Shown here piece after piece: positions 31,102 through 59,416 of a DNA stretch of 64,000 nt (position 1 is the first letter of the stretch; the number at the start of each line of letters is the position of its first letter). Source of the DNA: Candidatus Poribacteria bacterium (GTDB lineage: Bacteria; Poribacteria; WGA-4E; PCPOR2b); assembly GCA_965220385.1 (NCBI GenBank), contig OZ244825.1, forward strand, positions 323,143-387,142, given 5' to 3'. The position numbers and the translations under genes were made by a program. The notes beneath the pieces are model-generated. The model was not told the origin of the DNA, ran no database searches, and saw nothing but the letters and a program-made list of their open reading frames with translations.

Positions 31102-31230
31102 AAAATATTACCTCGCTTTCTTTGTCTATTTGAAACATGAAACATGATGCGTAAAAGTAGTCCAGAAATTCATATTTTGATTAACCAATCACACAACGAA
31201 ACAACCTGAGTTTCATTGGTTAAGTTGGCA

Positions 31231-32682: not shown

Positions 32683-32699
32683 TCTTCAAATATTTCCTC

Positions 32700-33788: not shown

Positions 33789-33813
33789 AAATGTGTCCTA
33801 TATGATGGGAGGT

Positions 33814-38384: not shown

Positions 38385-40604
38385 TCAATTCCGCCAAACC
38401 TTCAGGTTATCGTAGTAGACCTCAGCAGGCGAATAGCCGTAGATCCCCGGACTCCCCTCCCGATTCGGCAGCGGATCTTCGACAGTAATCGTCCATGCCT
38501 CCGGCTCCGGCTCACCCCTTGCCCAAACCTTTCCCTTGACATGCGCCGTATCATCGACGATATCCACCGTCATTTTCATCCTATACCAGACGTTCGGCTC
38601 CCACTTGAAGTCAATCCACTCTGCCATTCGGAGATCGGATCGCCATGAAAGCACCTGAAGCCGTTGGTGATTGCCCTGCATCTCAAGCGTGTAGCGATGG
38701 GCGATGAGTCCCATGTCTGGCATATTCCGCTTCGGCTTGGTTCCCAGCAAATCGACCTGAACGGTGTAATCCTTCATGTTCGGGGGACCGATATAGACAT
38801 TAGAGCGGTGTAACCCACGGCGGGCAGGCGGTTTGACGAGAATTTTGTTCCCATCCACCTCACGGACGACGAATCGGTTTGTTGCACGGACCCAGTGCGG
38901 TGGACTCTTCCCTTCCTCTATCGACTCAAAATCTTCCTGCCACGGTAACGGCGGAATCACGCGAACCCGTGCGGAGTTGCTTATATCCCCAATCTTTGCC
39001 AACACCGTTCCGGCTTGACCGACTGGACTCGATTCAAGAGTCAACTTGCCGCTGTCATCAATTACCCCTGACAACCCATTGAGCGACCATTCGACATCCT
39101 TTTTACCGACGCTCCCTCTGCCTTCATCGGTAAATGCCTGTACACTAAATTGGATACTGTCTCCCGGTTCGGCTAAGACTTCAGTAGGGGTAATCTGTAT
39201 CGATGCGGGCGCATCGGTAGACATCATCATACCAGCACGGTCTGGTACAGAGACAGATTGGCTTGAGGCAGAAGATCCCTGAACCCCTAAGCAGTAAAGC
39301 CCTTCCTCGGTGGTAAAGTAAACTCGACCGTCAGCGATGGCGGGTGAACCGTAAATTTCCGCGTAGTGGCCGGGTTCCCTTTCAATCTGTGTTGTGCTGA
39401 GCGTTTTGCATTCGCGCTCGCTCGGTTGCAGGATGTGGAAGTGTCCGTTGACTTCGGTGACATAGATTTTACCGTCCGCGACAACAGGCGATCCCTTGCC
39501 CACTGTGCCGAGGCTATGTGTCCAATGCACCTCCCCGGTTTCGCCATCAAGACAGTGTAAATTCGCCGAGCTATCCACAACATAAAGCCGACCGTCAGCT
39601 ATTGCTGGAGAGCTATAACCCGCCTCTATGCCGTTAACCCGCCAGAGTTCGTGCGTCTTGGTAATATCCCCCGTACCCGATCCATCGATGCAGACAACCC
39701 GCCCCATCACCGTCGTGTCGGTGTTCTCCCGATTGTGGCTTGCGTAGACCCGTGTGCCATCTACAACCACCGACGCATTGAGCGGGCCCTGACTGACTTG
39801 GAATCCCCAAACTTTCTCACCCGTTTGCATGTCCATAGCATACACATGACCGTCCGAGTTGCCGTCGATTAACAACCGACGCCCATTTATCTCTGCGACG
39901 ACAGAGACAGGATAGGTCGTGTCCTTCGGAGGACCACCGGGCTTCGCTGTCCACACCACCTCGCCGGTCTTTTTGTCGAAGGCAAAATAACGATGGCGCA
40001 TCGCGGCGTGGTCTCCCCAACTAGTGTTGAGGAAACTAAGAATCACAAGGTCCCCATCCACAACCGGTGTAACGGTGCGCCCACCATAGCCCGTGAATCG
40101 ACCATATTCCTCCGTCAAAGAGTGTGACCAGACAACCTTTCCGTCCTTGTCGAAACAGGCAAACACGCCGCTGATAGTGTGGGCATAAATGTATCCCGTT
40201 TCCCTATCGCCAGCTAAACTGGTCCAGCCCAATCGGTTAAAAGGGATGGTGCTGTGAAAGACGTTAAATCGATGTTCCCAGAGCATATCTCCCGACTCTG
40301 CATCAAAACACGCAACCCGTTCCTGTTCAGTGATGTCCATTCCAACGCGCCCGATGACATAAACCCGACTGTTCAGAACGATTGGCGTCGAACGCCCCAT
40401 AAAATCGGCTTTCCAAAGTAAGTTTTCACCCTCCAGCGACCAGTTTGAAATTAACCCAGTTTCTGAGGACGAACCGGTCTGATTTGGACCCCGCCAACTT
40501 GCCCAATCTGAGGCAAATGCGCCGTTAAAGCCTATCAAGCAAACACACAGATTTGCTCCTATCAACAGATACAGAATTGTTTTAAGCGTAACCCGATTTC
40601 GCAT
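38385..40604 (-). CDS. PQQ-repeat beta-propeller fused to a C-terminal DUF1080 (LamG-like jelly-roll, 3-keto-disaccharide hydrolase-like) domain. Secreted.
   Basis: N-terminal signal and DWASWRGPNQTGSSSETG motif. Multiple propeller blades. C-terminal ~200 aa ending YYDNLKVWRN, matching the DUF1080 C-terminal FDNhkV pattern. Confidence 0.7.
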   Translation of the reverse strand: MRNRVTLKTILYLLIGANLCVCLIGFNGAFASDWASWRGPNQTGSSSETGLISNWSLEGENLLWKADFMGRSTPIVLNSRVYVIGRVGMDITEQERVACFDAESGDMLWEHRFNVFHSTIPFNRLGWTSLAGDRETGYIYAHTISGVFACFDKDGKVVWSHSLTEEYGRFTGYGGRTVTPVVDGDLVILSFLNTSWGDHAAMRHRYFAFDKKTGEVVWTAKPGGPPKDTTYPVSVVAEINGRRLLIDGNSDGHVYAMDMQTGEKVWGFQVSQGPLNASVVVDGTRVYASHNRENTDTTVMGRVVCIDGSGTGDITKTHELWRVNGIEAGYSSPAIADGRLYVVDSSANLHCLDGETGEVHWTHSLGTVGKGSPVVADGKIYVTEVNGHFHILQPSERECKTLSTTQIEREPGHYAEIYGSPAIADGRVYFTTEEGLYCLGVQGSSASSQSVSVPDRAGMMMSTDAPASIQITPTEVLAEPGDSIQFSVQAFTDEGRGSVGKKDVEWSLNGLSGVIDDSGKLTLESSPVGQAGTVLAKIGDISNSARVRVIPPLPWQEDFESIEEGKSPPHWVRATNRFVVREVDGNKILVKPPARRGLHRSNVYIGPPNMKDYTVQVDLLGTKPKRNMPDMGLIAHRYTLEMQGNHQRLQVLSWRSDLRMAEWIDFKWEPNVWYRMKMTVDIVDDTAHVKGKVWARGEPEPEAWTITVEDPLPNREGSPGIYGYSPAEVYYDNLKVWRN

Positions 40605-45054: not shown

Positions 45055-47271
45055 CTACCTACCGCGCTCCCTCCGCCAGATCGTCACTACCGCCGGAATC
45101 GTTCCAACAATCAGAAACCCGATCGCACCCCAGATGGGCCAAAGCACCGGTTCATTCCATTCATTCTGCCGTCGAGCGCGCAATGTGCTGTCAATGCGTT
45201 TATATTTAAGAGTATTGTACCCGGTAGTATTCGGTTTGCCGTTTTTCAACCATTCGTGATAAAGTCCAAAGTTGACACGGTGATAGGCAAATATCCAAGG
45301 CGCATCGCGCTGGAGGATTAACTTCATCTGACGGACAATCTGGAGTCGTTCTGGCGAGTTGTCCATGTTTTGCATCTGATCGAATAGTCGGTTGTATTCC
45401 GGATTATCGTAATTGGCGACATTCTCACCATCAAATTTGGCTTTGCTATTCGGCCCGTAGAGCAGAAAGAGGAAATTCTCTGGATCCGGGTAGTCTGCGT
45501 GCCAACCCCACATCAGGATTTGTGAACTCCCATTTCTCGCCTTCTCTCTAAAACGGTTATAGTCCGTTGTTCGGACCTCCAACGTAATACCGATCAGTTC
45601 AAACCGCTTGCGCACCCAATTCAGAAAAGCGGTCGCTTGCGGGCCAGTCCGATAGTTGTCAAAATAAAGGATGAGCGGATTGCCATTCTTGTCTTGACCG
45701 CCGGGGTATCCCGCTTCAGCGAGTAGTTGACGCGCGTCTTCCAGCGGTTTGCGAATCGCGCCCTGCTTTGCGTCCCAGCTATAGACATACGGATTAATAC
45801 CAACCTCGCCCTCCTCATATCCGAAGATACCGGGCGGGATCGGATTGTGTGAAGGGATACCGCGTCCGTTGAGGAATATTTCGATGTATTCTTCATAGTC
45901 CAGCACTATCGAAATTGCCTGACGGAGTTTCTGCCGATCTTCGGTGTAGCCACCAACCACATCGTCTATCATATTGAACGCGAAATATATGGTGGTCACA
46001 TCTACGTTTGTTTCCAGCACAATATCTCGGGACCGCAACAGTTCGCTCGTCCGTGGATCACCCGTATCAGAAAACGTAATCGCTTGATCAAAGGTATCTG
46101 AGGAGATTCCAGAGGCATCGTAATAGCCTTGCAGAAATTTAGCCCAGCGGGGGATATATTCCTTTTCCAGTTTATAGACCGCTTTAGGAATCAGCGGCAA
46201 TCTTGCGCCCGCATCAGCGAGCAATCCCGCTTCCCTATCCCCAACTTCCCCTTCTGTGGGATACAGTTCCGTGTGAAAATTCTCGTTCTGGACGAGGATA
46301 ATCTCCTTGTGCGGCTTGAAGGTTTCAAGGCGGTATGGACCCGTCCCGACCGGAAACCGATCGATTGTAATGTTCCGGTTCTTCAGAGCGCTCTGCCCAT
46401 AGAAGTCAATAGCTTCCGCCGGCATCGGTGCGAAAAAAGGCATCGCAAGCCAGTAGATGAATTGCGGATATTTGGTTTTGAGAGTGATCTGGTAGGTGTA
46501 ACGATCAATAACCTCGACACCCGGAAATGGGAAGGCATCTATATCCAACGAGATCGGATTCTCCCGTTCATCGGTAGCTTGGTTATATGTGATTCCCCCT
46601 GCATCTCGCCGTTTCTTGCGCTCTGCCTCCAGTGCCTCGCGTAGTGCTGTTGCGTACTCATCCATACCCAGGATATAATTGTCTAACAGACTCAAGATAG
46701 GGCAGCCGACCCTCGGATCTGCCATCCGCTTTATCTGATAAACATAATCAGCGGCGATCAATTCTCGCGAGCCCGTTTCAGCGAAGTCGCTTACTTCGTA
46801 GACCCCTTTTACATCATCGGTTGTCAGCGTGTGATACCGAAACCTCCCCTCTTCGTCCTTCGCAAAGCACGGGTGGCGTTGGTATTGGATTCCGGGACGG
46901 AGGCGAATTTCATACACCGTCTTTGCAACATGATCCGGAGAAACATCATCCGGCAGCGAGTTGCCTTCAGAGTCGAAATAATGCGGCTTCGGCACAGATT
47001 CAGCCGTCAGTGGGATCAGTTCGTATGGACGCTTGAGGTAGTGATACTGGAGCGGGGATTCGTAAATCTGTTGGATGAAGCGATACTCACCTGAACTATA
47101 TGAAATTGCTGGGTCCAGATGTTTCGGTTCCTCCAAAAAGGTGCTGTAGTAGATTTCCTCCGTCTGCTCTGAAGGCGGATAGGGATTATTGGGAATACAC
47201 CCTGCTCCCCAAAGGACAAGGAGGATGAGCCAAAATCGGTTCCAGATATGCTGCAATCCGTGTCGTGTCAT
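45055..47271 (-). CDS. Family-5 ABC substrate-binding protein (oligopeptide-type), oversized (738 aa), with an N-terminal lipoprotein-like signal and a C-terminal TM helix
   Basis: SBP_bac_5-like core. N-terminal LVLWGAGC (lipobox-like). C-terminal hydrophobic stretch VLWPIWGAIGFLIVGTIPAVVTIW followed by RRERGR. Confidence 0.65.
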   Translation of the reverse strand: MTRHGLQHIWNRFWLILLVLWGAGCIPNNPYPPSEQTEEIYYSTFLEEPKHLDPAISYSSGEYRFIQQIYESPLQYHYLKRPYELIPLTAESVPKPHYFDSEGNSLPDDVSPDHVAKTVYEIRLRPGIQYQRHPCFAKDEEGRFRYHTLTTDDVKGVYEVSDFAETGSRELIAADYVYQIKRMADPRVGCPILSLLDNYILGMDEYATALREALEAERKKRRDAGGITYNQATDERENPISLDIDAFPFPGVEVIDRYTYQITLKTKYPQFIYWLAMPFFAPMPAEAIDFYGQSALKNRNITIDRFPVGTGPYRLETFKPHKEIILVQNENFHTELYPTEGEVGDREAGLLADAGARLPLIPKAVYKLEKEYIPRWAKFLQGYYDASGISSDTFDQAITFSDTGDPRTSELLRSRDIVLETNVDVTTIYFAFNMIDDVVGGYTEDRQKLRQAISIVLDYEEYIEIFLNGRGIPSHNPIPPGIFGYEEGEVGINPYVYSWDAKQGAIRKPLEDARQLLAEAGYPGGQDKNGNPLILYFDNYRTGPQATAFLNWVRKRFELIGITLEVRTTDYNRFREKARNGSSQILMWGWHADYPDPENFLFLLYGPNSKAKFDGENVANYDNPEYNRLFDQMQNMDNSPERLQIVRQMKLILQRDAPWIFAYHRVNFGLYHEWLKNGKPNTTGYNTLKYKRIDSTLRARRQNEWNEPVLWPIWGAIGFLIVGTIPAVVTIWRRERGR

Positions 47272-47288
47272 ACAGTTGCTCTCGCGCA

Positions 47289-47395
47289 GTTTATGGTGAA
47301 TTTTAAAAATAAATAAACAGTTTCATCCGCCCGGTAGGTGCGGTTTGTAACCGCACCGGTTTGGAGTGTCTCATTAATTCTATAAACTACCATAG
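47289..47395. repeat. ~105 bp intergenic element, copy 2 of 2
   Basis: One mismatch (C/T) to copy 1. Lies between the SBP gene start and the BMC-H gene. Confidence 0.85.
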
Positions 47396-47430
47396 CTTCC
47401 AAAGTCCCTTAGGGGGTTCCCTTGATCACC

Positions 47431-47455
47431 GTAGGGGCAATCCTTGTGGTCGCCC
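47431..47455. repeat. REP-like hairpin element family C copy
   Basis: GTAGGGGCAATCCTTGTGGTCGCCC. Confidence 0.65.
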
Positions 47456-47779
47456 TTCTGTGGGAGTCCCCTCCTGGACTTGCCTGTCCCGTCTGCTCCC
47501 TTGGTCTTGGTACGGACGATTCATCGGGTAGCAAGGCATTGGAAGTGTCTAAGTGATTCCAAAATCTAACACAATTAAGTTGACAGAATATCTGTGCTTC
47601 GGCGATTATGTCAATAAAAAAGTAGGATCAGATGAAATTCATGATCCCTAAGATGAGTCCTGAAAATGCTTGAATCAATCAGGTGATTGTGATATACTGC
47701 TATAACAAGTTCAAAATTATCTGTGATATTAAGGTGAGGCGCAAGCGATAACTGTCAATCAGGAGGATACATATCGATT

Positions 47780-48112
47780 ATGGCTGGCGAGGCTTTAGGT
47801 TTAGTCGAAACGAGAGGGCTTGTTGGAAGTATCGAAGCCGCTGACGCGATGGTCAAAGCCGCAAATGTTCAACTTATCGGTTATGAAAAGATTGGTGGCG
47901 GATATGTCACAGTCATGGTTCGTGGTGATGTCGGGGCTGTCAAAGCTGCCACAGATGCCGGGGCAGAAGCGGCCGCACGAGTCGGAGAGGTCGTTTCCGT
48001 CCACGTTATCCCACGGCCACACGCAGATGTTGAATCGGTTTTACCCGTACAAGAACAGGCCGAAGATAGTACGCTGACAATTGATATCGCTAACGCCGAC
48101 GCAGCGAATTGA
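47780..48112 (+). CDS. Bacterial microcompartment shell protein, BMC-H (PduA/EutM-like hexamer)
   Basis: Near-canonical Pfam00936 sequence: [77 protein letters not shown]. Confidence 0.92.
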
Positions 48113-48133
48113 TGGAGTTAGGAAAGATAGCGG

Positions 48134-48871
48134 ATGAATGACAAGGCACTCATTGAACTGGTCACTCATAAAGTGCTTGAACAATTGGAGCAGGTTGCTT
48201 TGAATCCCGATGCAATCGGGAGCGAAGAACCCTGCGGTGGCTGCGCCCTGCGAACCTGTGAGGCTGGAAATCGTGCCTGTGACGTTGTCGTTCAACAGCA
48301 GAAAATTCCCGTTGGTGTCTCAGCACGACATGCACACGTAACCCAAGAACACTTGGAGATTCTGTACGGCGAAGGACATCAATTGACTGTCCACGCCCCC
48401 CTATACCAGCCCGAAGCATTCGCGGCGAAGGAGACATTAACCGTTGTTGGGCGACGGATGCAAGCAATCGAAGGGCTCCGGATTCTCGGTCCCGTCAGAG
48501 ATTATTCTCAAGTCGAGCTTGCCCAGACCGATGCCATTCGCTTGGGACTGAATCCACCCATTCGCGATTCGGGAGATCTCGCCGGTTCAGAGTCGATTGT
48601 ATTGGTCGGTCCCAAAGGATCTGTTCACCTACAAGAAGGTGCAATCTGTGCGACGCGGCATATTCACATGACCCCTCAAGATGCGGAAAACTGGAGGATA
48701 CGTGAAGGGGATCTGTTAACAGTGCGTATTCCCGGCGAGCGAGCACTGACCTTTGAAAACATCCATCCGAAAATATCATCAAGTTATGTGCCGCAGATGC
48801 ACCTTGACACGGATGACGCTAACGCTGCCGGTTTACAGGGAGGAGAAGGCGTCGAGCTGCTGAGAGGTTAG
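48134..48871 (+). CDS. pduL: PduL-type phosphotransacylase (phosphate propanoyl/acetyltransferase) with an N-terminal encapsulation-peptide-like amphipathic helix
   Basis: Two PduL repeats with IPVGVSARHAHVT and ICATRHIHMTPQDA motifs. C-terminal MHLDTDDANAAGL. Residues 4-20 (ALIELVTHKVLEQLEQV) form an amphipathic helix, then a Gly/Pro-rich linker. Confidence 0.85.
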   Translation: MNDKALIELVTHKVLEQLEQVALNPDAIGSEEPCGGCALRTCEAGNRACDVVVQQQKIPVGVSARHAHVTQEHLEILYGEGHQLTVHAPLYQPEAFAAKETLTVVGRRMQAIEGLRILGPVRDYSQVELAQTDAIRLGLNPPIRDSGDLAGSESIVLVGPKGSVHLQEGAICATRHIHMTPQDAENWRIREGDLLTVRIPGERALTFENIHPKISSSYVPQMHLDTDDANAAGLQGGEGVELLRG

Positions 48872-48881
48872 GGGTATCTAA

Positions 48882-49643
48882 GTGAGGTTCAGTCCAGAAA
48901 TCATTCGGCGGATTGAAGCAGAAGTTGCGAAAGTGCTTGAACAACAAGGAACCACCTTGACTGCTCCCCAATCCGATAAACGGGTTCTGGCGATATTCGA
49001 TGCCGCTCAAATTGATCTCACGGTTCCGCTGGCACAACTCGATAAATGCATCCAAGGTGGTTATGCTGTTACAGCGATTGTGTCAGATATAGCGGCTAAG
49101 CTCTTGGACATCTCCCGTATCCGGTCCGCGTGCGGCAATGAACAAGTTTTCATAGCGAGTGAAATTACGAACCTTCAACCCTTTACAGAAGGGTTCTCCG
49201 CAATCGTTGTTCCCACGCTATCTTATGCGATAGCAGCGAAGTTAAGTTTGGGCTTGGCAGATACGCCGTGCGCTTATCTTGTGTTCCAAGCGTTGGTTCG
49301 CGGAAATAGGGTGCTCGCAACAGTTGATGGCTTTGGGGGCTCAGACCAATCTGAAATCCCATCCGAGATCTCAAAGTTGGGGCAAGATTACATCGCAACG
49401 TTGTCGGACTTCGGTGTTCAATTTGTTGCCATGGATCGACTTGCTGAAGCGATTTTAAGCGACGGTATACATCGTTTTAATCAGGCTAACCCAAGGGGTG
49501 GGCGAAACATTATCACCGCTTCGGTAATCGCCGAACTTCCACCAGATGCGCGCGAATTTCGTTACGCGAATCCGGCGATTATCACGCCGCTTGCACGAGA
49601 TTTGGCAGCTCGAAAGGGAATTCGGCTCGTGGCGATGGACTAA
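48882..49643 (+). CDS. Hypothetical protein co-transcribed with BMC-H/PduL (GTG start inferred from the ORF track)
   Basis: 253 aa ORF directly after pduL. alpha/beta-like composition (VLATVDGFGG, GIRLVAMD). No recognised motif. Confidence 0.4.
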   Translation: MRFSPEIIRRIEAEVAKVLEQQGTTLTAPQSDKRVLAIFDAAQIDLTVPLAQLDKCIQGGYAVTAIVSDIAAKLLDISRIRSACGNEQVFIASEITNLQPFTEGFSAIVVPTLSYAIAAKLSLGLADTPCAYLVFQALVRGNRVLATVDGFGGSDQSEIPSEISKLGQDYIATLSDFGVQFVAMDRLAEAILSDGIHRFNQANPRGGRNIITASVIAELPPDAREFRYANPAIITPLARDLAARKGIRLVAMD

Positions 49644-49917
49644 AAAATCAATATCTGGTATCGCTTTTACCACAGCTGCGTATCGCTATTGCTACGGTTT
49701 TCGCTCTACAGATGCCGTGTCCTTTGCTATTATAGACAACTCAGCGGTTAAATCAACGATGGCATCTAACTTGCTACTGATACACATTACGAAATCTATT
49801 GGTGGATAACGTCAAGTTCGCTCATGTCGGCTGATTGGCATGAGCGAACTCCTTAGTATCATGTGATCGAGTCAAGAAAATCCGCTTTGTTAAATGCACC
49901 CAAAAGGAGGGGTTGCA

Positions 49918-51573
49918 ATGAAATTCCAGGTTCCGTTCTCCATATGCCTACTGCTGACAATTCTGCTACTGATGCTCACGCCCCATACTGTTCCAGCACA
50001 GTATGATTACGACTACTTCTCAGATCGACTCAGTCGCGAACACCGGGACGCAGGCGATGTTGAGGACTGGATCGAGCGCGGCAATGCGACCGTCACCGCC
50101 AGCCCTCGTTTTGAAAGTGGGGTCCGCCTGGCAGCGTGGGCAAGTGACTCTAAGAACGCGGAGAGCTACGAATTTGCAATAGCCAGTGCAATCTATCTCT
50201 TCGAAATTCCGCGACGGGCTCAGTACGTTGAGATTTTGGTGCGCTACCGAGGCGAACCACACCAAGCTGATTTTGATCACGAGGACATCGCAGGGCGTGT
50301 TTGGATTCGTAATACCAAACGTGAATATTCTCGCAGGCAGTATGATAATAACGACGAAGAAGAAACCCTGTACGGCGATACCTTCTTTTTGCGTGCAAAA
50401 CGTCGCTCAGAGACCATAAAAGTGGCGACAGCAGGACGTGTCGAGAATGGCATCCTTGAAATGCACATTGTTGCCGAAAATGGTGAGCAGCTTGATATCG
50501 AATATGTTGATGTTGCAACCTATCAAAGACAGCCGGATGTTCGTGTTATACACCGCTATGCTCGGGATTACCACTGGAAGCCTTGGAATCGATATACCTA
50601 TCTCTATTTTTATGATGGTCCCTTCTACTACTGTACAGACTTAGGTTACTATATTCGATGGAGCTATCCAGTTTATGACCATCACTACGTCACGATTCGT
50701 CGTACCTATGGCACCTATCTCCACGACTACTATCGTCGTTACCCGCGTCGGTACCACCGAAATTCCTACTATCACGCAGGTGTCCATGTTGTTCATAAAT
50801 CTCCTAAGACGCAACGGTTGAATCGCTGGACGAATGCGCATGAAACTACCCGCCGCGAATATTCGCGGAGCCGATTGTCGGTGACTACATCCAAAACGAA
50901 CAGAGCTAATGTGCGTACCCGGGTGCGCTCCCTTATCACAGAACACCGTCAGACACCGGTTCGTACAGATAGAGTTATCCAGCAGTCGGCGGTTTCTCGA
51001 AAACGAGGCCTTCGTGACACAAGACGTGAACCAAACACAGCCATAGAGCAGCAGCGCAATAACCAGCGATCTTCGCGTGATGTATCCTCGCGACCTTACC
51101 GTGCAACCCAGCAGATCCAAAAACGTAAACGCTTAAGTACTGTCGAGAGGGACCCCCGTTCTAATGTACAATCTCGTAATGTCCCGCCTCAAACCCGCCA
51201 GTATGATCGCTATCGGTTTGCGCCAAAGAATCAGCGTTCATCGGACAATGACAATGAGGTGTCGACCCGGTCAAACGCAGAACGACGAACGCGCCTTTAT
51301 AACCGAACCCAGTCTTCGAGAAGTAGACTGAGTACACCACCTTCACGCAGCCGATCCTCAACCGTCAAACAGAAGACAGAAACACGCAGCCGGGTTAAGC
51401 AATCCAGGTCTCGTTCATCTACGTCTCGTTCATCTACCGCGACTACTCCACGTACGCAAAGACCGACAACTAAGCAAACGACGTCGAGTTCAAGCAGCAA
51501 AGATGATGATGATGAAAAACGGGAACGTAGTCGCACTACCACAAGAACCCAAACACGTAGTCGAAGAAAATAG
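49918..51573 (+). CDS. Secreted protein with a Tyr/Arg-rich core and a ~250 aa Arg/Ser/Thr-rich low-complexity basic tail. Start refined to MKFQVPF.
   Basis: Strong RBS AAAAGGAGGGG before the ATG at 49918. Signal peptide MKFQVPFSICLLLTILLLMLTPHTVPAQ. Residues ~330-550 are >50% R/S/T/Q/K, ending in poly-Ser and DDDDEK. Rho-independent terminator downstream. Confidence 0.6.
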   Translation: MKFQVPFSICLLLTILLLMLTPHTVPAQYDYDYFSDRLSREHRDAGDVEDWIERGNATVTASPRFESGVRLAAWASDSKNAESYEFAIASAIYLFEIPRRAQYVEILVRYRGEPHQADFDHEDIAGRVWIRNTKREYSRRQYDNNDEEETLYGDTFFLRAKRRSETIKVATAGRVENGILEMHIVAENGEQLDIEYVDVATYQRQPDVRVIHRYARDYHWKPWNRYTYLYFYDGPFYYCTDLGYYIRWSYPVYDHHYVTIRRTYGTYLHDYYRRYPRRYHRNSYYHAGVHVVHKSPKTQRLNRWTNAHETTRREYSRSRLSVTTSKTNRANVRTRVRSLITEHRQTPVRTDRVIQQSAVSRKRGLRDTRREPNTAIEQQRNNQRSSRDVSSRPYRATQQIQKRKRLSTVERDPRSNVQSRNVPPQTRQYDRYRFAPKNQRSSDNDNEVSTRSNAERRTRLYNRTQSSRSRLSTPPSRSRSSTVKQKTETRSRVKQSRSRSSTSRSSTATTPRTQRPTTKQTTSSSSSKDDDDEKRERSRTTTRTQTRSRRK

Positions 51574-51592
51574 TGCTAACCTGCAACAAAAA

Positions 51593-51636
51593 TAAACAGT
51601 TAGGGAGGAGTGCGTTCCTTAACTGTTTTTTTTGTT
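51593..51636 (+). terminator. Rho-independent terminator after the RS-rich secreted protein gene
   Basis: AACAGTTAGGGAGG...CCTTAACTGTT stem followed by TTTTTTTT. Confidence 0.7.
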
Positions 51637-51644
51637 GACAAGAC

Positions 51645-52241
51645 TTGCGCGTTTTGCTATCATACGCCTTGGAAAAGAGGTGTAGGAATTTGACCGGATC
51701 TCTAGTGAAGTTATTGGGGTTTGCGCTGGTCGCCCTCGCTCTATTTTTATTTTCGCGAGGACAACTCAGTGCTGCGCAGCCAGATGAGAATCTGCGCCTT
51801 GTGTCGCCAGTAGGTGCCATAGCCCGTTCTGCAGTTGTGCCCGGTTGGGGGCAGTTTCACGCCCGTAACCGTTTGCTGGGTGCTACATCCTTCGTAGGAA
51901 CAAGCGGATTCCTTGTTGGTGCGTTGATTACTCACCAATCCTTCCGAGATGTCTACGACAATCAGTATGTGCCCGTTGCTTCACAAGACCCTAACTCTCC
52001 GGAAGCGCTTTTTCAATACAATCGAGCGAATCAACGCTACAAGTTGCGACAGTTCTTTCTCTTCGCTGCAGCGGGGGTATGGGCCTATAGCTTGATTGAT
52101 TCCTATGTTGGAGCAAATCTGTACAATGCAGAGGCAAAGGCGAACCAAATTATTGATGAGATGAAGCAGATTGAAGAGTTGAACTTACAGCTTGACGTAA
52201 CTCCAACACAACTTCAACTGGATATCGTCAAATTCTTTTGA
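51645..52241 (+). CDS. Membrane protein with a PGWGQ motif (DUF5683-like); start uncertain
   Basis: Hydrophobic segment LLGFALVALALFLF. VVPGWGQFHARN motif. Second TM segment TSFVGTSGFLVGALI. Confidence 0.4.
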   Translation: MRVLLSYALEKRCRNLTGSLVKLLGFALVALALFLFSRGQLSAAQPDENLRLVSPVGAIARSAVVPGWGQFHARNRLLGATSFVGTSGFLVGALITHQSFRDVYDNQYVPVASQDPNSPEALFQYNRANQRYKLRQFFLFAAAGVWAYSLIDSYVGANLYNAEAKANQIIDEMKQIEELNLQLDVTPTQLQLDIVKFF

Positions 52242-52284
52242 AAGTCTAGCAAACACAGCAATTCCTTATGGAGGAAGTTCAGCC

Positions 52285-52866
52285 ATGCTAAAAGTATTTA
52301 CCAAAATTACTGGGCTATTGCTCGTTTTTAGTTTGCTTATAAGTTGTGGGGATGTAAGTAGTGTTACCAAAGTTCAGTCAAAGGAACTTGTCCTAATTAA
52401 CCAAGTTCTGAAAAACTGGCGTGAAGGATATCAGAGCGAAGACCTTGATAGGTATATGAGTGCGTTTTGGGAAGATGGGTTTCTTTACGTTTCAGATATG
52501 GGAACTGATGCTGATAAGACGGATGACGTTATATTTGACGATATCCGGGACGAAAGGGATTCAGCGCAGCGCGTTTTTGCCAGATTCCAGGATATTGAGA
52601 TCGAGTTGTCCGAACCGCCCGAGATACAACTGAATGCAGACAGGACACGAGCGGAAGTCAGAAATCATTATCGGATCCAAGGGTTTGTCGCGGACGGCGA
52701 TTCACTCGAAGGGGGATTTACCGGCTGGTTCGCAGAAGGGAATAATATCTTTACCTTTGAATTGAGAACCAATACGGGTTCCGATACACAAGAGTGGCGT
52801 ATCACTGAATGGAGGGATGAAGCGTATAGCGAAGAGCAGATTAGAGCCGCTAACAACTTGCAGTAA
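52285..52866 (+). CDS. Lipoprotein, NTF2-like/DUF4440-like fold
   Basis: Signal plus lipobox LLISCGD. NWREGYQSEDLDRYMSAFWEDGFLY resembles SnoaL/DUF4440-like proteins. Confidence 0.45.
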   Translation: MLKVFTKITGLLLVFSLLISCGDVSSVTKVQSKELVLINQVLKNWREGYQSEDLDRYMSAFWEDGFLYVSDMGTDADKTDDVIFDDIRDERDSAQRVFARFQDIEIELSEPPEIQLNADRTRAEVRNHYRIQGFVADGDSLEGGFTGWFAEGNNIFTFELRTNTGSDTQEWRITEWRDEAYSEEQIRAANNLQ

Positions 52867-53333
52867 TCTCTCAATGCGGTCAAACAACCTCTCTTCTTGA
52901 TGATCCTTTTTCACCATTTGATGCAGATTTTATTCTCGAAATGGGGACCACGGTCTCATTGACTCGCGCCACAGGCTTTTCGGCACGACCTTTTAACGGC
53001 CTGAGCCTTTACCAAATCTTGGGCTCTGCAATTTTACAGTTGTCGACATTGACGTGGCTGCAACCGTAGTACTGATCCAACCGGTATTTAACCTGCCTCT
53101 ATTTTTCACCAGCCTTTTTCGATGTTTTTTTGTCCGGCAATGTTAGTCATAACCAAAAGTAACAGCGATCAACACTTCTGCTCAAAATCTCGGAATGACT
53201 GATCTTCTAACTGAACTCTCGCTGCACTTCGTAAAACACTTTCTAAGACTGGGGAAAAGTCGCTTCCGTGTGACGGATTCGACCCATTTTTGCGCTAACT
53301 CTGGTACATCACAATTATTTTAAGAAAAAAGTC

Positions 53334-53362
53334 TTGACAGAAAATTGCAGAAGTGTTATCTT
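53334..53362 (+). promoter_or_regulatory. Candidate sigma70 promoter (TTGACA-17 nt-TATCTT) driving a ~530 nt leader ahead of the large lipoprotein/OMP gene
   Basis: TTGACA at 53334-53339. 17-nt spacer. TATCTT at 53357-53362. No sizeable ORF between it and 53893. Confidence 0.35.
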
Positions 53363-53892
53363 AGAGATTACTTTTTTTCAGAAGCAGAACTTCATTGAGA
53401 AAAAAAGTATCAACTGAATGGCGGCAGCAACACAGATGGGAAACGTGAATACCGTCCAAGTCAAGCATGTGGATCATCCCGCTTACCGAATGAGCAATGG
53501 CTTAATCTGAATCAGTACTTAATTGAATGTTAGTTGTTACATGCCAACTGCTTTCAGATGCTTGTATCCCCCGAAATTGGGCTACAAGCCTTAACCTGAT
53601 GCCGCTGGAACCTAACGCCAGCAGAGAAAACGTAAAGACCGGTTTTGCACCGAATCTGGGTAATTAAATAGTTGCGTATTGCTAATGAATCCTTGCAAAA
53701 GGAGGTTGCGATATGTTCCACCACTGACGCAAGTTAAAATAGGAGATGGATTGGTAGACGGTCACAAACTCCGAAGCCGTGATTGATTCGACTCTCCTAT
53801 TTCGACTTGATGCACGGATGAACGTTATTATGGACGTTTTATATCCTCACTTTTATGTCAAATGTAATTTATGATTTCCTCAAGGAGGCAAA

Positions 53893-56800
53893 TGAAAGTA
53901 ATGAAGTTTTTCAAACGATCACCTGATTTTCTGTTGATTATGGCGGGGCTGATCGGTTGTTTCGTGCTCTACGGGTGCGGCGCAACAAGCCTTGGTCCAC
54001 AGGAACCGCTCCTACCGACGGTTGAAGGACAAGCTAACTTCTCCGACCGGTTCCAATTGGAAGAAGAACCCCAGTTCTTCTATGACCTGTTTGGTAGGGA
54101 ACTTCTCGAAGGTAACGAAGTCTACAATTATCGCGAGGAGAAACAATTCGACCAAAACGGAGAACTGATTGTCGGTTGGACCGGTCAGCTTGATAGCGAA
54201 AGATTTTCCGCCCAGTTGGACCGTCAGATTCTAACCGAAGATAATTTCCGTGGCAGATTTACGCAGTTCGTCATTGGGGACGATATGCGTATTAAGCCTC
54301 AAACCTTATTCCCTAACCGATATGTCATCTACAAAACCGAATTTGATGGCTTCCGATGGGACATCTCCTTCTCGCAAGAACGTCACCTCTTCACACTACT
54401 GAACTCTCGTATTTCTAACCCGGTGAAGCTGTCTGACGCGGCGGCAAACCTCGCACCAACACTCGGGCGACGTAACGGTCTGAGCGATGATGTTGGGCTA
54501 CGCCATATTGAGAACGCACGTTTAATCGGATTTCGTGCACAAGGGTTGCTCGGTGACGTGTTCCGTGTAGGTCTCACCTATGTCAATCTTCACAAAGAAC
54601 ACCCGGAACGAGTTGAAAACCCAATCTTCGGCGGATCTGTTGCCAATACACCCCCAGAGCGTATCGTTGTTGTCTTCCGTGATGATTCTCCAGAAGATAA
54701 CAATTATGGTGGCTTAGCACATGACCTCGAAAGAGATTTCCAAGCATCGAAGATTCAAGGTGGTGTCGGTGCCGCTGTCAAGGGCATGAAAGTCCACGTT
54801 ACCACGCAAGCGCTTTCCGGCTCCTCGGCTGATGGTCCAGACCGTCCGGCTGGTCCCGAGAGGACGCAGACTATCTCAGTCTTTATCGACGACATCGTCG
54901 CGGTCGAGGGCAGTGCTGACCCGATTGAATCCAGAGACGGACAATGGAAAATTGTCGAAGGGTTCAATAAGATGCAGTACGTCTTGGACCTCACCTCTGA
55001 GGAACTACCCAATGGGCCCATTGATCCACGAACAGTGAAGTCAGTTGAGTTCGAAATGACGGTCGCTGGGGACTATAACATCGTCGTCATCGGATTTAGT
55101 GAGGCAAACAAATCGGACGATCCACTTGCAGCTGAATGGATCAAAACCGAAGACGGTCATATCGAGTCGCCGTATCGTGATGTGCTTCAAGCGCCCGGCA
55201 ACTATGGCCGATCAGATCATTACACCGAGAACAGAAGCAGCTTGCTGCATAACCCAAGCGACTGGGAAAATGAAGGCGCATCGCGTACGATTCGATATCG
55301 CTACGGTGCGGCGCGGGCTGGTGTGCTGTATGGTGTTGACCTGGAAGGAACCCTGTTTAATACCTTTATCCGAGCACACTACTCGATTAATGGAAAATTT
55401 AAACAGTATCCAACCATTCCCAGAGACCAAATCGGCTTCAGTCGACTGAATCCTGAAATCGAAGGTTCGAACGTCACTATCGACGAAACAGAGACGACAG
55501 AGGACGGATTGCCGAACCCCACCTTTGGAGTTCCGCTTGATGCCAACGGCATCCCCACATACTCTGAAACGGAAGGGGAACGGTTTGAAGCCAAGTTGAA
55601 TGGTGATCCGAATGATGACGGAGAGATGGGACGCGAAACTGCGTGGTTTGTCAACCTGAGACAACGTTACGGCAAACTCTTCCTTGAAGGAACCCTCTAC
55701 CATATCGATCCGGGTTATACCACTACATACTATAACTTCGGTGCAAACGACGCAAGAGATGCAACCTACTCTCTTGACCGAACACCTGAATCCGGTGCTG
55801 AAGTGCTTCCCTTCGATGAGATTAACTACGCACTCATTGAAGATGATGATGATGACGACGACTGGCCAGACAGCATCGACTTTGACGGCGTTCTGCCGCA
55901 AGCCGATGACCGTGACCAAAACGGTATCCTCGACTTCCAAGAAGACTTCCTCATCTTTGAGGCGGATCCTCCGGTTTTTGAAGATCTCGTTGACCTCAAC
56001 AACAACGGCGTTGTCGACTCATTGGAAGATGACTTCGAGCCACAGTATGAATACGGTATTAACCGTGAAGGATATCATATCACTGCCAGCTACGACCTAC
56101 TCGATAACATGACCCTCAAACTGGGTTGGTTAAAAGAGGGTGAAGTCTCCAGTCAGCGGCAGAATAATTCAAAATATGCGCATCTCACCTTCCAACGTGA
56201 CGTGCCAGATTTCGGAACGGTTCTATTCCAGAATCGGTTTGTCCGTGTTGACGATGATATTCCAGATTATTCGATTACCCTGCGGCCAGGCGAGTTAGAT
56301 GCCACACAGGAATCTGATTTTCTCGATTTCTTCAAAACACGCGTCAATGTGACAAGTCTTCAGTTCCTCTACAGTGCAATTCCAAACCTAACGCTTGAAA
56401 CCAAGTTCTTGGTCGACTGGCGGAAACAGTTGGGACTTGATGAAGAGGATGCTATTGCGCTCGATTTCCCACAGGATGATCCGAGCCAAGAGAAGGACGA
56501 TCACGTTGATTTCATGGTGCCCGACGAACAGGTCCGAGCCGACGGCGACCGGAAGTCATACCCCTTCTATCCAGATCACGGGCTTAACCCGCTGGATCCA
56601 GAAGACCTCGGTTTGATCTATGATCCAGAAAACTGGATTCCACGTCGGTTCCAAGAAAAGACCGTCCGAAATCAGATCACAATTCTCAGAGCCAAATATG
56701 AAATCCCGTTGGGTGACCTGCCCGGCGTGGACAGAATTGGGGAAGACTTAACGTTGACGCCAATGGCAAAATATATTTGGACTCGCGCATTTGATCATAC

Positions 56801-57227
56801 GGCGGCTAATATCGAAGAGGGTAGCTATCTCAATCCGTTGGATCCAACAAAATTTGTGCCTGACGATCCAGAGGTTATTGAGTATCTCCGATTTAACAAA
56901 CGTAGCCGTGAAGATGTCCTCGGTGTGCGTTTGGATTATCAGTTTACTCAGAGAATGAATATCCTCGGCGGTTTTCAGTATCGCAAATTCACCAACCGTG
57001 ATCAAACTATCAAAGACTATCTAGCGACTCCAGCGTTTGAGGAAGCCGATATTCCAATCCTCTTCCGTCCAGACCTCCGTACGCGGATCTTTGAAGTTCA
57101 GTCAATCAGCCGAGGTGAATGGCAAGGTTTCAATATCGTCATTCTCGCCGGTTTCAGAAGAACTACCATCTTGCTTGACCACACGACAAGTAACACGACC
57201 TTCGTCCGAGCGATGATGGGCTTCTAA
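53893..57227 (+). CDS. Large (about 1110 aa) lipoprotein or outer-membrane protein with acidic Ca-binding-like Dx[DN]xDG motifs and a C-terminal Phe
   Basis: AAGGAGG RBS before the ATG at 53893. Signal with lipobox VLYGCG. Poly-Asp run EDDDDDDDWPD. TSP3-like motifs DRDQNGILD and DLNNNGVVD. C-terminal ...TFVRAMMGF-COOH resembles an OMP beta-barrel terminal signature. Confidence 0.6.
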
Positions 57228-57237
57228 CAATCTCCGA

Positions 57238-57277
57238 AAGTGCCAAGCATGTCTGTTCTGCTTGGCACTTTTTCGGT
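57238..57277 (+). terminator. Rho-independent terminator after the large lipoprotein/OMP gene
   Basis: AAGTGCCAAGCA-tgtctgttc-TGCTTGGCACTT stem followed by TTTT. Confidence 0.7.
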
Positions 57278-57444
57278 TCTACCGAAACTTTCAAAAAACA
57301 GAAGTGTTTATAAAACCAAGCATTCGTTTGGATAAAAGTTTAGTCGTCCGAAACGAGGTGGTTGAGGCGACTTGAAATTGAGGGAAATATCGTTTTGCAC
57401 CCTCTAAATTTTATTACACCTTCAAACTCCAATAGGAGGAATAC

Positions 57445-58440
57445 ATGAAACACCTGAGTTTTACCTTAATGATAGCTACCATGCTAATCGTTTTCAGTTC
57501 GGTTGCGCTCGCTCAAGATGCGTCAACCGGCACGGTTCGTGGTAATGTTGTAGATACCACAACGGCGCAAACGCCAATTAGTGATGTGAGAGTTGTTGTC
57601 GTCGGTACCGATGGCACGGAGCATGAAACGACAACCGATGATGTCGGTGAATATAGCAAATCCGGCTTGCCACCGGGTCGTTACCTCCTTAGTATTTACA
57701 AAGACGGATACGGCGACCGAACCGGTAAACCTGTCACCGTCGTCGCTGGTGGTGACCACTATGTGCCACTGAAAATGACCAAAAAAGATACCATCGTCAC
57801 CTTCTTCGCTAAGTTTGGTATCGTTTTCTGGCCACTTCTTCTCTGTTCTGTGGCGGCATTGACCTTCATTATTGAACGTCTCTTTACCTTCCTAAGAAGC
57901 CGTTCCAAACTCGGTACAGAGCAGTTCATGGCAAGCATTACCGATTCTCTGCGTAACGACAATATTATGGAAGCCGTCTCAACCTGTGAAGAAGCTGGTG
58001 GTCCACTTGCAAACGTGTTGAAAGCAGGTCTACTGAGGTACAGCCAAGCACAGATTGAAGAGCAGGAGATTACAAAAGAAGAGATTCAGGAATCTATTCA
58101 AGAAGCAGGGCTTCTCGAGATTCCAGAACTTGAACGGAACATTCCTGTTATTAGTACCGTTGCAGTGATCTCGCCGTTGTTTGGTCTCCTCGGTACGGTT
58201 ATGGGTATGATTAATGCGTTTACCACGATTGCACTTGAAGGTACTGGTGACCCGCAAGCACTTGCAGGTGGTATCTCTCAGGCGTTGCTGACCACCGCCG
58301 GTGGTTTGACAATCGCTATTCCGTGTCTCATCTTCTCACAGGTCTTTGAGAGTTGGGTCAACAAATTCGTGCTTGAGATTGAACAGGTTTCGACAGAAAT
58401 TGTCAACCAACTGATTCTTGGTCAAGCTGGCAACGCGTAA
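57445..58440 (+). CDS. exbB: MotA/TolQ/ExbB-family proton channel with an N-terminal periplasmic carboxypeptidase-regulatory-like (transthyretin/Ig-like) domain
   Basis: Signal peptide, then GTVRGNVVD...DVRVVVVGTDGTE...GRYLLSIYKDGY (CarbopepD_reg-like). Three TM helices. ExbB signature ISPLFGLLGTVMGMINAF. Confidence 0.75.
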   Translation: MKHLSFTLMIATMLIVFSSVALAQDASTGTVRGNVVDTTTAQTPISDVRVVVVGTDGTEHETTTDDVGEYSKSGLPPGRYLLSIYKDGYGDRTGKPVTVVAGGDHYVPLKMTKKDTIVTFFAKFGIVFWPLLLCSVAALTFIIERLFTFLRSRSKLGTEQFMASITDSLRNDNIMEAVSTCEEAGGPLANVLKAGLLRYSQAQIEEQEITKEEIQESIQEAGLLEIPELERNIPVISTVAVISPLFGLLGTVMGMINAFTTIALEGTGDPQALAGGISQALLTTAGGLTIAIPCLIFSQVFESWVNKFVLEIEQVSTEIVNQLILGQAGNA

Positions 58441-58523
58441 ATTTAACGTTCTCCTGTCACCCTATCGGCATACCCTTTAGGGTGACAGGAAGACTTACCT
58501 TTTAGAACAGGAGGTAGTCGGAG

Positions 58524-58970
58524 ATGGCAAGTACGCAAGCACCTAGTGGTATGACCCGAATGGCAGGGAGAGAAAGAAAATCGCCTAAGCTCGACATGGC
58601 CCCGATGATTGATTGTGTGTTCCTGCTTCTGATTTTCTTTATGGTTTCGACCAGTTTTGCTCCAATGCCTGGCATTCGCGTTCAATTACCTCCTCCGGGT
58701 AAACCCAATCCTAATAAACCCAAAGGGCTCATCGTCAGGATCGCGAACCCTGAAGGTGTTCAGAAGTATGGCACTATGATCTTGAATGACGAGATTGTTA
58801 ACATCAATCAGATGTTCACTGAGTTTATTCATGCTCCCGAAGAAATCAAGAATATGGTAATTATTCAGTCAGAACGGGATGTCATACATGAGCAGATTAT
58901 TAACGTGATGGATATTGCCAAGCAAGCAGGTATAGACAAAATCGGCTTTGCAGTAGTGGCAAGGGAATAA
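58524..58970 (+). CDS. exbD: ExbD/TolR-family biopolymer transport protein (paralogue 1)
   Basis: Single N-terminal TM with LDMAPMIDCVFLLLIFFMVS ExbD signature. Periplasmic C-terminal domain. Confidence 0.8.
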   Translation: MASTQAPSGMTRMAGRERKSPKLDMAPMIDCVFLLLIFFMVSTSFAPMPGIRVQLPPPGKPNPNKPKGLIVRIANPEGVQKYGTMILNDEIVNINQMFTEFIHAPEEIKNMVIIQSERDVIHEQIINVMDIAKQAGIDKIGFAVVARE

Positions 58971-58984
58971 CAAAGGAGGATACT

Positions 58985-59416
58985 ATGGCTATACAAATGA
59001 GGACAGGAAAGGCAAAGGAACGCGGTCAAGCCTTGATGATGGAACCGATGATTGATTGCGTTTTTCTATTGCTGATCTTCTTTATGGTTTCAGCAATTAT
59101 GCGTGTGCCTCCGCCTTTCACTGTAACGCTGCCGGAGTCAGCTACGAAGCACGACTTTCCGCGTAAGAAATTCAATCTCTTTATCAGTGCAGATGGCAGA
59201 ATCTCATTTGATGATCTAGAGATGCTCACGCTAGATCACATGGAGATGTATCTGTCTTCAAAAGAGTCTCAAATTACTACACTCATTATCAAAGCCGACA
59301 GACTTGCCAAACATGGCAGAGTGATCGATGTCATGGAACGTGCGAAACGTCGATTTAGTAAGACGGAGGGGCAGGAAATCGCTTTGATGGTCGCAGAGGA
59401 AAGTTACGGGAATTAA
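58985..59416 (+). CDS. exbD: ExbD/TolR-family biopolymer transport protein (paralogue 2)
   Basis: MEPMIDCVFLLLIFFMVS signature. GGAGGA RBS. Followed by rho-independent terminators. Confidence 0.8.
   Translation: MAIQMRTGKAKERGQALMMEPMIDCVFLLLIFFMVSAIMRVPPPFTVTLPESATKHDFPRKKFNLFISADGRISFDDLEMLTLDHMEMYLSSKESQITTLIIKADRLAKHGRVIDVMERAKRRFSKTEGQEIALMVAEESYGN

Follow-up and report, generated by a model that had tools for sequence, protein, structure and literature searches.

What does a bacterial microcompartment (BMC) locus build that holds a single hexameric shell gene, a phosphotransacylase gene and a third gene without a Pfam match, and what does the third protein do there? We asked this of a 64,000-nucleotide stretch of DNA from Candidatus Poribacteria bacterium (assembly GCA_965220385.1, contig OZ244825.1, positions 323,143 to 387,142 of the forward strand), hereafter the window; all positions are counted from its first letter. 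The trio lies on the plus strand as three co-oriented open reading frames (ORFs), namely BMC-H (47780-48112), PduL (48134-48871) and a protein that we call X (48882-49643), and our reading of the ORFs agrees exactly with the coordinates in an earlier note, which a model had made from the letters of the window without database searches. The locus is already known, being an instance of the published poribacterial BMC-A/FRAG2 fragment; it adds nothing new by itself, and the value of the analysis lies in the third gene. We consider, with a probability of about 60%, that the trio is a fragment of a FRAG2-type metabolosome and that X is a long-form PduM-like protein linking shell and cargo. The linker role is proposed because X combines a PduM-like N-terminal helix, an oligomer-prone fold and a C-terminal module resembling both PduM and the H1/H2 region of EutQ, and because it is encoded beside a EutM-like BMC-H.

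X consists of 253 aa, starts with GTG and, from profiles and synteny, is a candidate long-form PduM-like, TIGR02536-like BMC protein. It gave no match to Pfam, and PF02441 was not matched even at E up to 10; an exact look-up of the protein in the assembly index likewise retrieved no record. An AlphaFold2 (AF2) model with a mean predicted local distance difference test (pLDDT) score of 76 divides the protein into three modules set apart by disordered linkers at residues 19-31 and 195-208. The first module, at residues 5-23 (48894-48950, plus strand; EIIRRIEAEVAKVLEQ), is a predicted amphipathic helix resembling an encapsulation peptide (EP) or signal sequence, as recognized from the AF2 model, the hydrophobic moment and a sequence profile. 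The linker behind it has a pLDDT below 50, and helix and linker together reproduce, in the model, the layout of an EP. The hydrophobic moment of the helix, 0.68, corresponds to the 99.7th percentile of 14-mers from cytoplasmic proteins of the window. A profile of the family's N-termini aligned to residues 5-20 of E. coli PduM with 16.5 bits, a score that 0 of 5000 shuffles reached, and the N-terminus of X obtained 19.9 bits on the EP-like profile. The N-terminal profile gave 13.0 bits for PduB, 8.2 for EutC, 7.2 for EutE and about 6.4 for PduP, PduD and PduE, and about 0 for the non-EP N-termini of EutQ, EutD, EutG and an aldolase. Because known EPs are scored and non-EP N-termini are not, the segment can be classed from its sequence as EP-like, nearest to the two 'structural' signal sequences.

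The second module, at residues 33-195 (48978-49466, plus strand), is a body with the Rossmann-like HFCD/UbiX flavoprotein fold, in which the flavin motifs have degenerated. The canonical signatures of the broad family are F-T-G-G-x-x-G and P-x-L-T-x-N-T-A-A-K; their poribacterial counterparts read F-D-A-A-Q-x-D and P-T-L-S-Y-A-I-A-A-K, and X of the window, with F-D-A-A-Q-I-D and P-T-L-S-Y-A-I, lacks the flavin-binding signature. The replacements in poribacterial X are T40 to D (D40 occurs in 25 of 29 sequences), G41/G42 to A/A, G45 to D, N116 to A and T117 to I, at positions that, going by the EpiD and CoaC structures, are contacts of flavin mononucleotide (FMN). These replaced motifs explain why X finds no Pfam match, and they suggest that the flavin site has been lost from the poribacterial proteins. 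Compared with HFCD/UbiX flavoproteins such as EpiD, CoaC/Dfp, UbiX, DmrB/AfpA and DpaB, X has lost the Gly-rich loop and the PASANT-like Asn/Thr, and it has terminal targeting modules and a BMC context in addition; no equivalents of the catalytic His or Cys of these enzymes were identified in X. The HFCD flavoprotein-fold family is normally trimer-based and oligomeric.

The third module, at residues 205-253 (49494-49640, plus strand; IITPLARDLAARKGIRL), is named here after its 'IITPLARD' motif and was characterized with hhalign, shuffled sequences and an ORF scan. It is the best-conserved part of X, with T235, P236, A238, D240 and A242 invariant in Poribacteria, and Pfam has no separate domain model for it. 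By hhalign, it is homologous to a 48-residue stretch at the C-terminus of E. coli PduM (residues 115-162; E 8.8e-6) and to residues 2-52 of EutQ (E 1.1e-6). In a shuffle test, 0 of 5000 shuffles attained the real score in either case, the score for PduM being 29.9 bits. A profile of the module, searched against 17,457 ORFs of 78 loci, found only X genes, a PduL fusion described below, PduM, EutQ and, weakly (E 0.004), the N-terminus of EutT. The module may therefore mark three enterobacterial BMC proteins: PduM, EutQ and EutT. In the open-access text that we searched, no paper linking these three by homology was found.

Two minor observations concern the same module. In E. coli K-12 eutT (L007:21503-22306, minus strand), the unannotated residues 9-49 (DFITEAWLR…RLTPSARELLESRHLRI) resemble it. 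A weak likeness to PF02817 (E3-binding/PSBD; E 0.007 for P0124 and 0.16 for the L075 fusion protein) was kept as a lead only and was not used.

The enterobacterial relatives suggest what the two termini of X might do. In Salmonella, EutQ H1/H2 (residues 9-41) binds the shell proteins EutM/EutL and H3/H4 binds the EPs of the cargo, and deletion of either H1/H2 or H3/H4 splits the shell from the cargo (PMC12487888); EutQ without residues 1-100 lost EutM binding in pull-downs (PMC4827028). The signal sequence of PduM (ssPduM) targets proteins to the core, and the loss of PduM or of this sequence partly uncouples the core from the shell (PMC12108088). In the latter paper, PduM is stated to have no known homologues outside Pdu. 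X has in common with PduM of Salmonella and E. coli the position of its gene after pduL, the N-terminal helix and the C-terminal ~48 residues, so that a PduM-type signal, C-terminal region and synteny are all found, but it is 90 residues longer and contains the HFCD flavoprotein-fold body. With EutQ, it shares the ~45-residue module 'xITxxDI...IITPxARxxAxxxG'. In EutQ, however, the module stands at the N-terminus, ahead of the EP-binding H3/H4 and the cupin acetate-kinase domain, none of which X has (the cupin model PF06249 gave no match), whereas in X the module is C-terminal and is accompanied by an EP-like helix of its own. Whole-protein models of PduM (PF15953, TIGR04493 and NF011957) did not match X, and its relatives matched only the last ~40 positions of these models (16-20 of 96 sequences at E up to 1e-3).

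The family to which X belongs is much larger than its poribacterial branch. A homologue search returned 114 clusters, nearly all from Poribacteria, and an exhaustive profile search returned 1,502 representative clusters, of which 689 reach E <= 1e-10, mostly full-length at 250-270 aa; the three-module architecture is kept across this length in the broad family. Among 96 sampled members, 92 match TIGR02536 ('eut_hyp') and 89 match PF02441. X itself reaches only 29.7 bits with TIGR02536 over residues 101-249 (E 4.5e-7), below the cut-off of 152.6, and by this profile comparison it is a distant relative of TIGR02536 rather than a member of the equivalog. Wherever the genomic context is visible, the X gene directly follows PduL, and the family does so in PDU, EUT2-like, aldolase/aldehyde dehydrogenase (ALDH) and FRAG loci. 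Two loci (L002 and L076) have the content aldolase-II/BMC-H×2/PTAC/X/ALDH, and in a complete Clostridia PDU locus (L003) the order is PduL-EutJ-X-PduN, placing X in the slot that PduM occupies in the pduL-pduM-pduN order of E. coli. The counterpart by position in C. difficile is CD1921, a protein of 'unknown function' encoded between a PduL-type EutD and EutN. A 'pfam02441 flavoprotein' has been reported beside BMC-H/PTAC in FRAG6 and FRAG7, and not in FRAG2 (Sutter 2021). The CD1921-type (TIGR02536) and FRAG6/FRAG7 flavoproteins thus belong to the same broad family as X and share its post-PduL position, while X of the window differs from that family in having no PF02441 match and replaced flavin signatures. 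The earlier note had proposed the 253 aa protein as a candidate new BMC-associated component and had named a lack of homologues in other BMC loci as grounds for dropping it. Such homologues exist (L002, L003 and L076), and the association with BMCs, based on the position after PduL in many BMC types, stands; the novelty does not, since the protein falls in the TIGR02536/'pfam02441 flavoprotein'/long-form PduM family. The nearest non-poribacterial relatives of X occur in class-II-aldolase/ALDH loci and, by analogy with these, the organelle would be compatible with a sugar-derived aldehyde as substrate.

Two natural variants help to separate the modules of X. In a Guaymas Basin poribacterium (L075:476-1408, QNBQ01000491.1), PduL carries the X module as a direct C-terminal fusion, and the 310 aa product has the order EP, Cys motif, PTAC, linker and module, without a flavoprotein body. 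This fusion provides independent Rosetta-stone support for the view that the module works with PduL. It is followed by a BMC-domain-like (PduT-like) ORF at 1410-1718 and a PduS-like ORF at 1724-2548. In the other variant (L078:10349-11748, ERZ25072854 ctg60464, a 6.2 Mb contig), X is cut down to an ORF of 71 aa that retains only a degenerate module, VIITLLARD; 380 bp of non-coding sequence precede this ORF, and PduL ends in an aberrant tail of 40 aa. The state of X in L078 is probably the result of a deletion or pseudogenization.

The fold of the body raises an alternative to a linker: X could be primarily an encapsulated flavoenzyme, for instance re-oxidizing NADH in the lumen or passing electrons to a PduS/T-type conduit, with its termini serving only to package it. 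The body has a clear HFCD/UbiX fold, the canonical flavin signatures persist in most of the broad family, 89 of 96 members reach PF02441, PduS-like genes lie near X in L002, L075 and L076, and EutQ shows that one protein can serve as linker and enzyme at once. In the poribacterial clade, however, the flavin signature positions are replaced and X falls below Pfam detection, and the body is dispensable in L075 and undetectable in enterobacterial PduM. Moreover, X is the fastest-evolving member of the trio: in the census described below, the median identity to the window is 39% for X (33-92% across 63 species), against 73% for PduL and 90% for BMC-H. We therefore regard an enzymatic role as unlikely and the poribacterial body as most likely a scaffold, because its flavin-binding motifs have been replaced.

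The second gene encodes a PduL-type phosphotransacylase of 245 aa (48134-48871, plus strand), as had been proposed from the sequence alone. PduL matches PF06130 at 9.5e-67 (224.6 bits, cut-off 25) over residues 59-234, the catalytic PTAC domain (48308-48835, plus strand; model positions 1-175 of 176), and passes NF011652 with 230.9 bits against a cut-off of 209. It has 48 invariant columns in common with E. coli PduL, including H66, H68, H176, H178 and H223. The established function of BMC-associated PduL is the recycling of coenzyme A (CoA) in the lumen. Residues 1-20 (48134-48193, plus strand; MNDKALIELVTHKVLEQLEQ) form a putative EP helix, supported by alignment with the characterized N-terminal signal sequence of E. 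coli/Salmonella PduL, by a score of 10.8 bits on the EP-like profile that 0 of 2000 shuffles reached, and by conservation across 64 species; the hydrophobic moment of the helix lies at the 91.5th percentile. The N-terminus thus has, as far as sequence can tell, the layout of an EP, with a terminal amphipathic helix and a linker before the domain.

Here the earlier note was right about the helix, while the linker that it had called G/P-rich is better characterized by a conserved Cys4 motif, which it had overlooked, as it had the EP-like helix of X. The motif lies between the EP and the catalytic domain, at residues 34-49 (48233-48280, plus strand; CGGCALRTCEAGNRAC), and has the form CxxCx4Cx6C, with the spacing C34-x2-C37-x4-C42-x6-C49 and the consensus C-[GS]-G-C-A-L-R-[TS]-C-x2-G-x-R-A-C-D. 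Of 64 poribacterial PduLs, 63 have it, L075 having a variant with five Cys, and it was not found in PduL of L002, L003 or E. coli. The open-access literature yielded no description of it. The four Cys may constitute a metal, Fe-S or redox site, and the phylum-wide insert might sense metals or redox state and thereby regulate the loading of cargo or the recycling of CoA.

The first gene encodes a BMC-H of 110 aa (47780-48112, plus strand) that is EutM/PduA-like and ends in an acidic C-terminal tail of ~20 aa. Its description as a textbook hexamer protein was borne out: it matches PF00936 at 1.6e-31 (108.5 bits, cut-off 24.5) over model positions 1-75 of 75, and it passes the NCBIfam model for EutM (NF012018) with 136.4 bits against a cut-off of 133. 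In the translation, K26, N29 and R79 (PduA numbering) and the pore residues G39-G40-G41 are retained, giving the hexamer interface and small-residue pore of PF00936 shell proteins; 'standard interface residues' have also been reported for BMC-H of FRAG2 (Sutter 2021). An orthologue is present in all 63 poribacterial loci. Three candidates for a second BMC-H paralogue were rejected: P0323 and P0328 turned out to be orthologous loci from other lineages, and P0335 is an orthologous locus carrying the shortened X.

The three genes form one operon heading the poribacterial 'BMC-A' block. Their intergenic gaps are only 21 nt (BMC-H/PduL) and 10 nt (PduL/X), and a Shine-Dalgarno sequence, AGGAGG (47761-47766, plus strand), precedes the ATG of BMC-H by 13 nt. 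A consensus scan identified a promoter-like site, TTGAAT-17-TATACT with an extended -10 element (47670-47698, plus strand), which would drive transcription of the trio. The segment containing it, 47656-47703, is the sole upstream segment kept in distant poribacterial lineages with different upstream genes. An Rfam scan of the whole window gave zero matches, which indicates that no riboswitch precedes the operon, and no intrinsic-terminator-like site was found in 47200-50000.

No further shell gene and no acylating ALDH accompany the trio in the window. The absence of BMC-P, BMC-T and a signature ALDH, previously noted within 15 kb, was found by tblastn and hidden Markov model (HMM) searches to extend to the full 64 kb for a second BMC-H, BMC-P, BMC-T and a PduP/EutE-type ALDH. 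The only ALDH of the window (27694-29133, minus strand) is a divergent, generic PF00171 protein (6e-17) whose top NCBIfam match has 32 bits against cut-offs of >440. We rejected it as a BMC partner, given this divergence, its opposite strand, its place in a TPP-decarboxylase/PhyH/AMP-binding cluster, its lack of an EP-like N-terminus and its lack of similarity to PduP/EutE-type ALDHs.

To see how far the arrangement extends, we took a census of one genome per GTDB species, using query alignment A1, which biases the census towards Poribacteria, and locus HMMs built from verified BMC-H, PduL, BMC-P and acylating-ALDH sequences. The census comprised 63 loci, 61 of them assigned to Candidatus Poribacteria and many located on complete chromosomes of 4.7-7.0 Mb. 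The order BMC-H, PduL, X was found in the loci of all 63 species, X being present in L075 only as the PduL-fused module. Within ±10 kb of these loci, the HMMs detected no BMC-P, second BMC-H or PduP-like ALDH. The trio and the next four genes (d1-d4) were present and co-oriented in all 54 loci with full flanks. The upstream edge of the conserved block is sharp and lies at BMC-H, the upstream genes being common to only 16-18 of the 54 loci.

The co-inherited downstream block (49894-59416, plus strand) is separated from X by a gap of 250 nt with promoter-like sites, and any functional link to the trio, drawn from context, is putative. It encodes a 559 aa secreted low-complexity R/S/T-rich protein, a DUF5683 protein, a SnoaL-like lipoprotein, a 1118 aa outer-membrane-protein-like protein ending in …MMGF with the terminal Phe typical of that class, a CarboxypepD_reg-ExbB protein and two ExbD proteins. 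A sigma-54 response regulator is encoded at 59571-60944, after the ExbB/ExbD block.

This gene order, BMC-H, PduL, five hypothetical proteins, ExbB, ExbD and ExbD, is that of a region which single-cell genomes of Poribacteria had already revealed and which was named 'BMC group A' (Kamke 2014, PMC3909097, Text S1, Table S2). In that work, poribacterial shell genes fall in groups A-D, and three pfam03319 (BMC-P) genes were found at two other sites, in the single-cell genomes 3G and 4E (Kamke 2014, PMC3909097, Table 2). Poribacterial loci were later classed as 'satellite-like', some with PduL or AldDh (Axen 2014). The BMC type FRAG2 was described as mostly from Poribacteria, with dispersed shell genes, a BMC-P triplet elsewhere and a 'lack of locus organization' (Sutter 2021 Supplementary Data 2), and published surveys report that a second BMC-H is sometimes scattered elsewhere in Poribacteria. 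The comparison with catalogued locus types that the earlier note had recommended accordingly places the locus in FRAG2 (Sutter 2021), and the dispersal of that type is seen here, with no BMC-P within 10 kb in the 63 loci and none in the window. The locus is identical to the published BMC-A region, and what we add is the dissection of the first 'hypothetical protein', X, and the Cys4 motif of PduL. EP-HMM searches in FRAG genomes were negative (Sutter 2021), whereas PduL and X of the window both carry detectable EP-like helices.

Expression data bear on the form that the organelle takes. In sponge metatranscriptomes, BMC-H and PduL are highly transcribed as one polycistron and the downstream genes are found in separate polycistrons, and immunohistochemistry located BMC-H in ring-shaped, membrane-proximal signals (Jahn 2016). 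On the model of that study, BMC-H would form membrane-proximal sheets or patches together with ExbB/ExbD and the outer-membrane block, and no closed polyhedra. The anti-BMC-H signals are associated with the membrane and co-localize with ExbD (Jahn 2016), all 54 loci with full flanks keep the trio and the envelope block together, with the sharp edge at BMC-H, and no vertex gene lies within 10 kb in the 63 genomes. However, poribacterial genomes have been reported to contain a triplet of BMC-P genes, which is the hallmark of closed shells (Kamke 2014, Sutter 2021), and PduL and X bear predicted lumen- or core-targeting and shell-docking modules typical of enclosed metabolosomes. The downstream genes are, moreover, transcribed separately, past the 250 nt gap with its promoter-like sites, and a gene order kept within a single phylum is weak evidence for a functional link. 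We consider membrane patches an improbable form for this system.

The earlier note had left the choice between a satellite of a main locus elsewhere and an unusually minimal compartment. Shell-plus-enzyme fragments far from main loci are common (Sutter 2021), and the HMM library of the same catalogue has an AldDh model labelled FRAG2, so that an ALDH partner exists somewhere. Yet three independent surveys report only scattered fragments in Poribacteria, and a classical satellite of a conventional main locus is very unlikely. A satellite, as the catalogue defines it, has shell protein(s), with or without enzymes, but not BMC-H and BMC-P together, and lies distal from a main locus (Sutter 2021); the gene content of the trio agrees with the first part. 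Since the surveys report no main locus and place Poribacteria in the dispersed FRAG2 type, 'satellite-like' or 'fragment' is a more accurate term than satellite: the locus is most likely one fragment of a scattered system, rather than an outlier of some hidden main locus or a minimal compartment complete in itself. The idea that the locus is a decayed, non-functional vestige of a former BMC, for which the lack of a vertex gene, ALDH or signature enzyme nearby and the shortened X of L078 might speak, is effectively refuted by conservation and expression, as all 63 species keep the three ORFs intact, BMC-H is held at ~90% identity, the catalytic residues of PduL are invariant, and the high transcription of BMC-A and the in situ detection of its protein (Jahn 2016) rule out the unexpressed relic that the earlier note had allowed for.

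A fragment of a FRAG2-type metabolosome with X as its linker would work as follows. BMC-H would supply the facet hexamers of the shell, while the vertex pentamers of the BMC-P triplet, a second BMC-H if there is one, the ALDH and the enzyme that generates the aldehyde would be encoded at other sites. PduL would enter the lumen by means of its N-terminal EP and convert acyl-CoA to acyl-phosphate, thereby recycling CoA for the ALDH encoded elsewhere. The N-terminal helix of X would join the cargo core, including PduL, as ssPduM does, and its C-terminal module would dock on the BMC-H layer, as EutQ H1/H2 does on EutM/EutL. The HFCD-fold body between them, if oligomeric, could make the link between shell and cargo multivalent.

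Several points weigh against this scheme. Shell docking by X is carried over by analogy from EutQ, through ~45 residues aligned at an hhalign probability of 83-91% with single-sequence templates. The similarity between the N-termini of X and PduM could be convergent, amphipathic EPs being alike, and the profile that matches ssPduM also scores PduB, EutC and EutE. Similarity between the central region of PduM and the flavoprotein body of X is not detectable, so that the designation as a long-form PduM rests on the two termini and synteny. The argument for flavin loss leans on the assignment of FMN-contact residues; S68, K120 and D127 are still conserved, and the body of X may retain some ligand binding. 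The remnant in L078 indicates that X is not strictly indispensable. The presence of BMC-P and an EP-bearing ALDH in the same genomes is taken from the literature, and the ring-shaped, membrane-proximal BMC-H signals were accompanied by no obvious polyhedra (Jahn 2016).

The comparison of X with the enterobacterial proteins leads to a broader proposal, which we put forward tentatively and at somewhat less than even odds. The 'IITPLARD' module would be a portable, ancient BMC shell-docking domain, and the flavoprotein-fold family would be the ancestral long-form PduM, a generic core-to-shell linker in PDU, EUT2, PVM-like and FRAG systems. The set of proteins sharing the module would then include PduM, EutQ, weakly EutT, the CD1921/TIGR02536 protein, the 'pfam02441 flavoprotein' of FRAG and aldolase-type loci and an occasional PduL fusion, and the poribacterial body would be a pseudo-flavoprotein scaffold. 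Such a domain would contradict the view that PduM is without homologues beyond Pdu, and the FRAG compartments would gain their first predicted assembly factor; if the module does work as a tag for shell docking in general, it could serve to load cargo into synthetic BMC shells. The domain logic of X does not appear to have been described before. X ties together PduM, EutQ and the Gram-positive eut 'unknown', which are treated as unrelated in the literature, and its architecture offers a concrete, testable assembly model for FRAG-type BMCs, which occur widely in candidate phyla and for which neither a function nor an assembly mechanism is known. The Cys4 motif of PduL is a separate lead, suggesting that metals or redox state may control the enzyme that recycles CoA.

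The remainder of the window holds further genes of interest. The divergent ALDH belongs to a group at 27694-34689 (minus strand) that also encodes a benzoylformate-decarboxylase-like thiamine pyrophosphate (TPP) enzyme, a protein that partly matches N6_N4 methylase, an AMP-binding-like protein and PhyH, and that is unrelated to the trio; a lactaldehyde-reductase/ErcA-like iron-containing alcohol dehydrogenase (Fe-ADH) is encoded at 24074-25237. At 36409-38375 (minus strand), an AAA_21/AAA_15 ATPase of 398 aa and a DUF4276 protein of 257 aa correspond to HEC-01, a candidate defence system in PADLOC, with matches of 4.4e-50 to HEC-01A and 1e-4 to HEC-01B. An 831 aa RecQ-family helicase (15642-18137, minus strand; DEAD, Helicase_C, RecQ_Zn_bind, RQC and HRDC) carries an N-terminal Dual-OB domain (DuOB, PF22557) and matches PADLOC DpdF models at 2.6e-210, which may only mirror the common helicase core. 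Five paralogous secreted PQQ_2/BamB-like beta-propeller proteins are encoded on the minus strand (12784-14016, 14336-15613, 22927-24090, 34704-36146 and 38385-40604), several of them with an N-terminal 'WPQWRGPN' motif. The PhyH dioxygenase gene (33814-34689) lies near the beta-propeller genes, and both fit the expanded families reported for Poribacteria.

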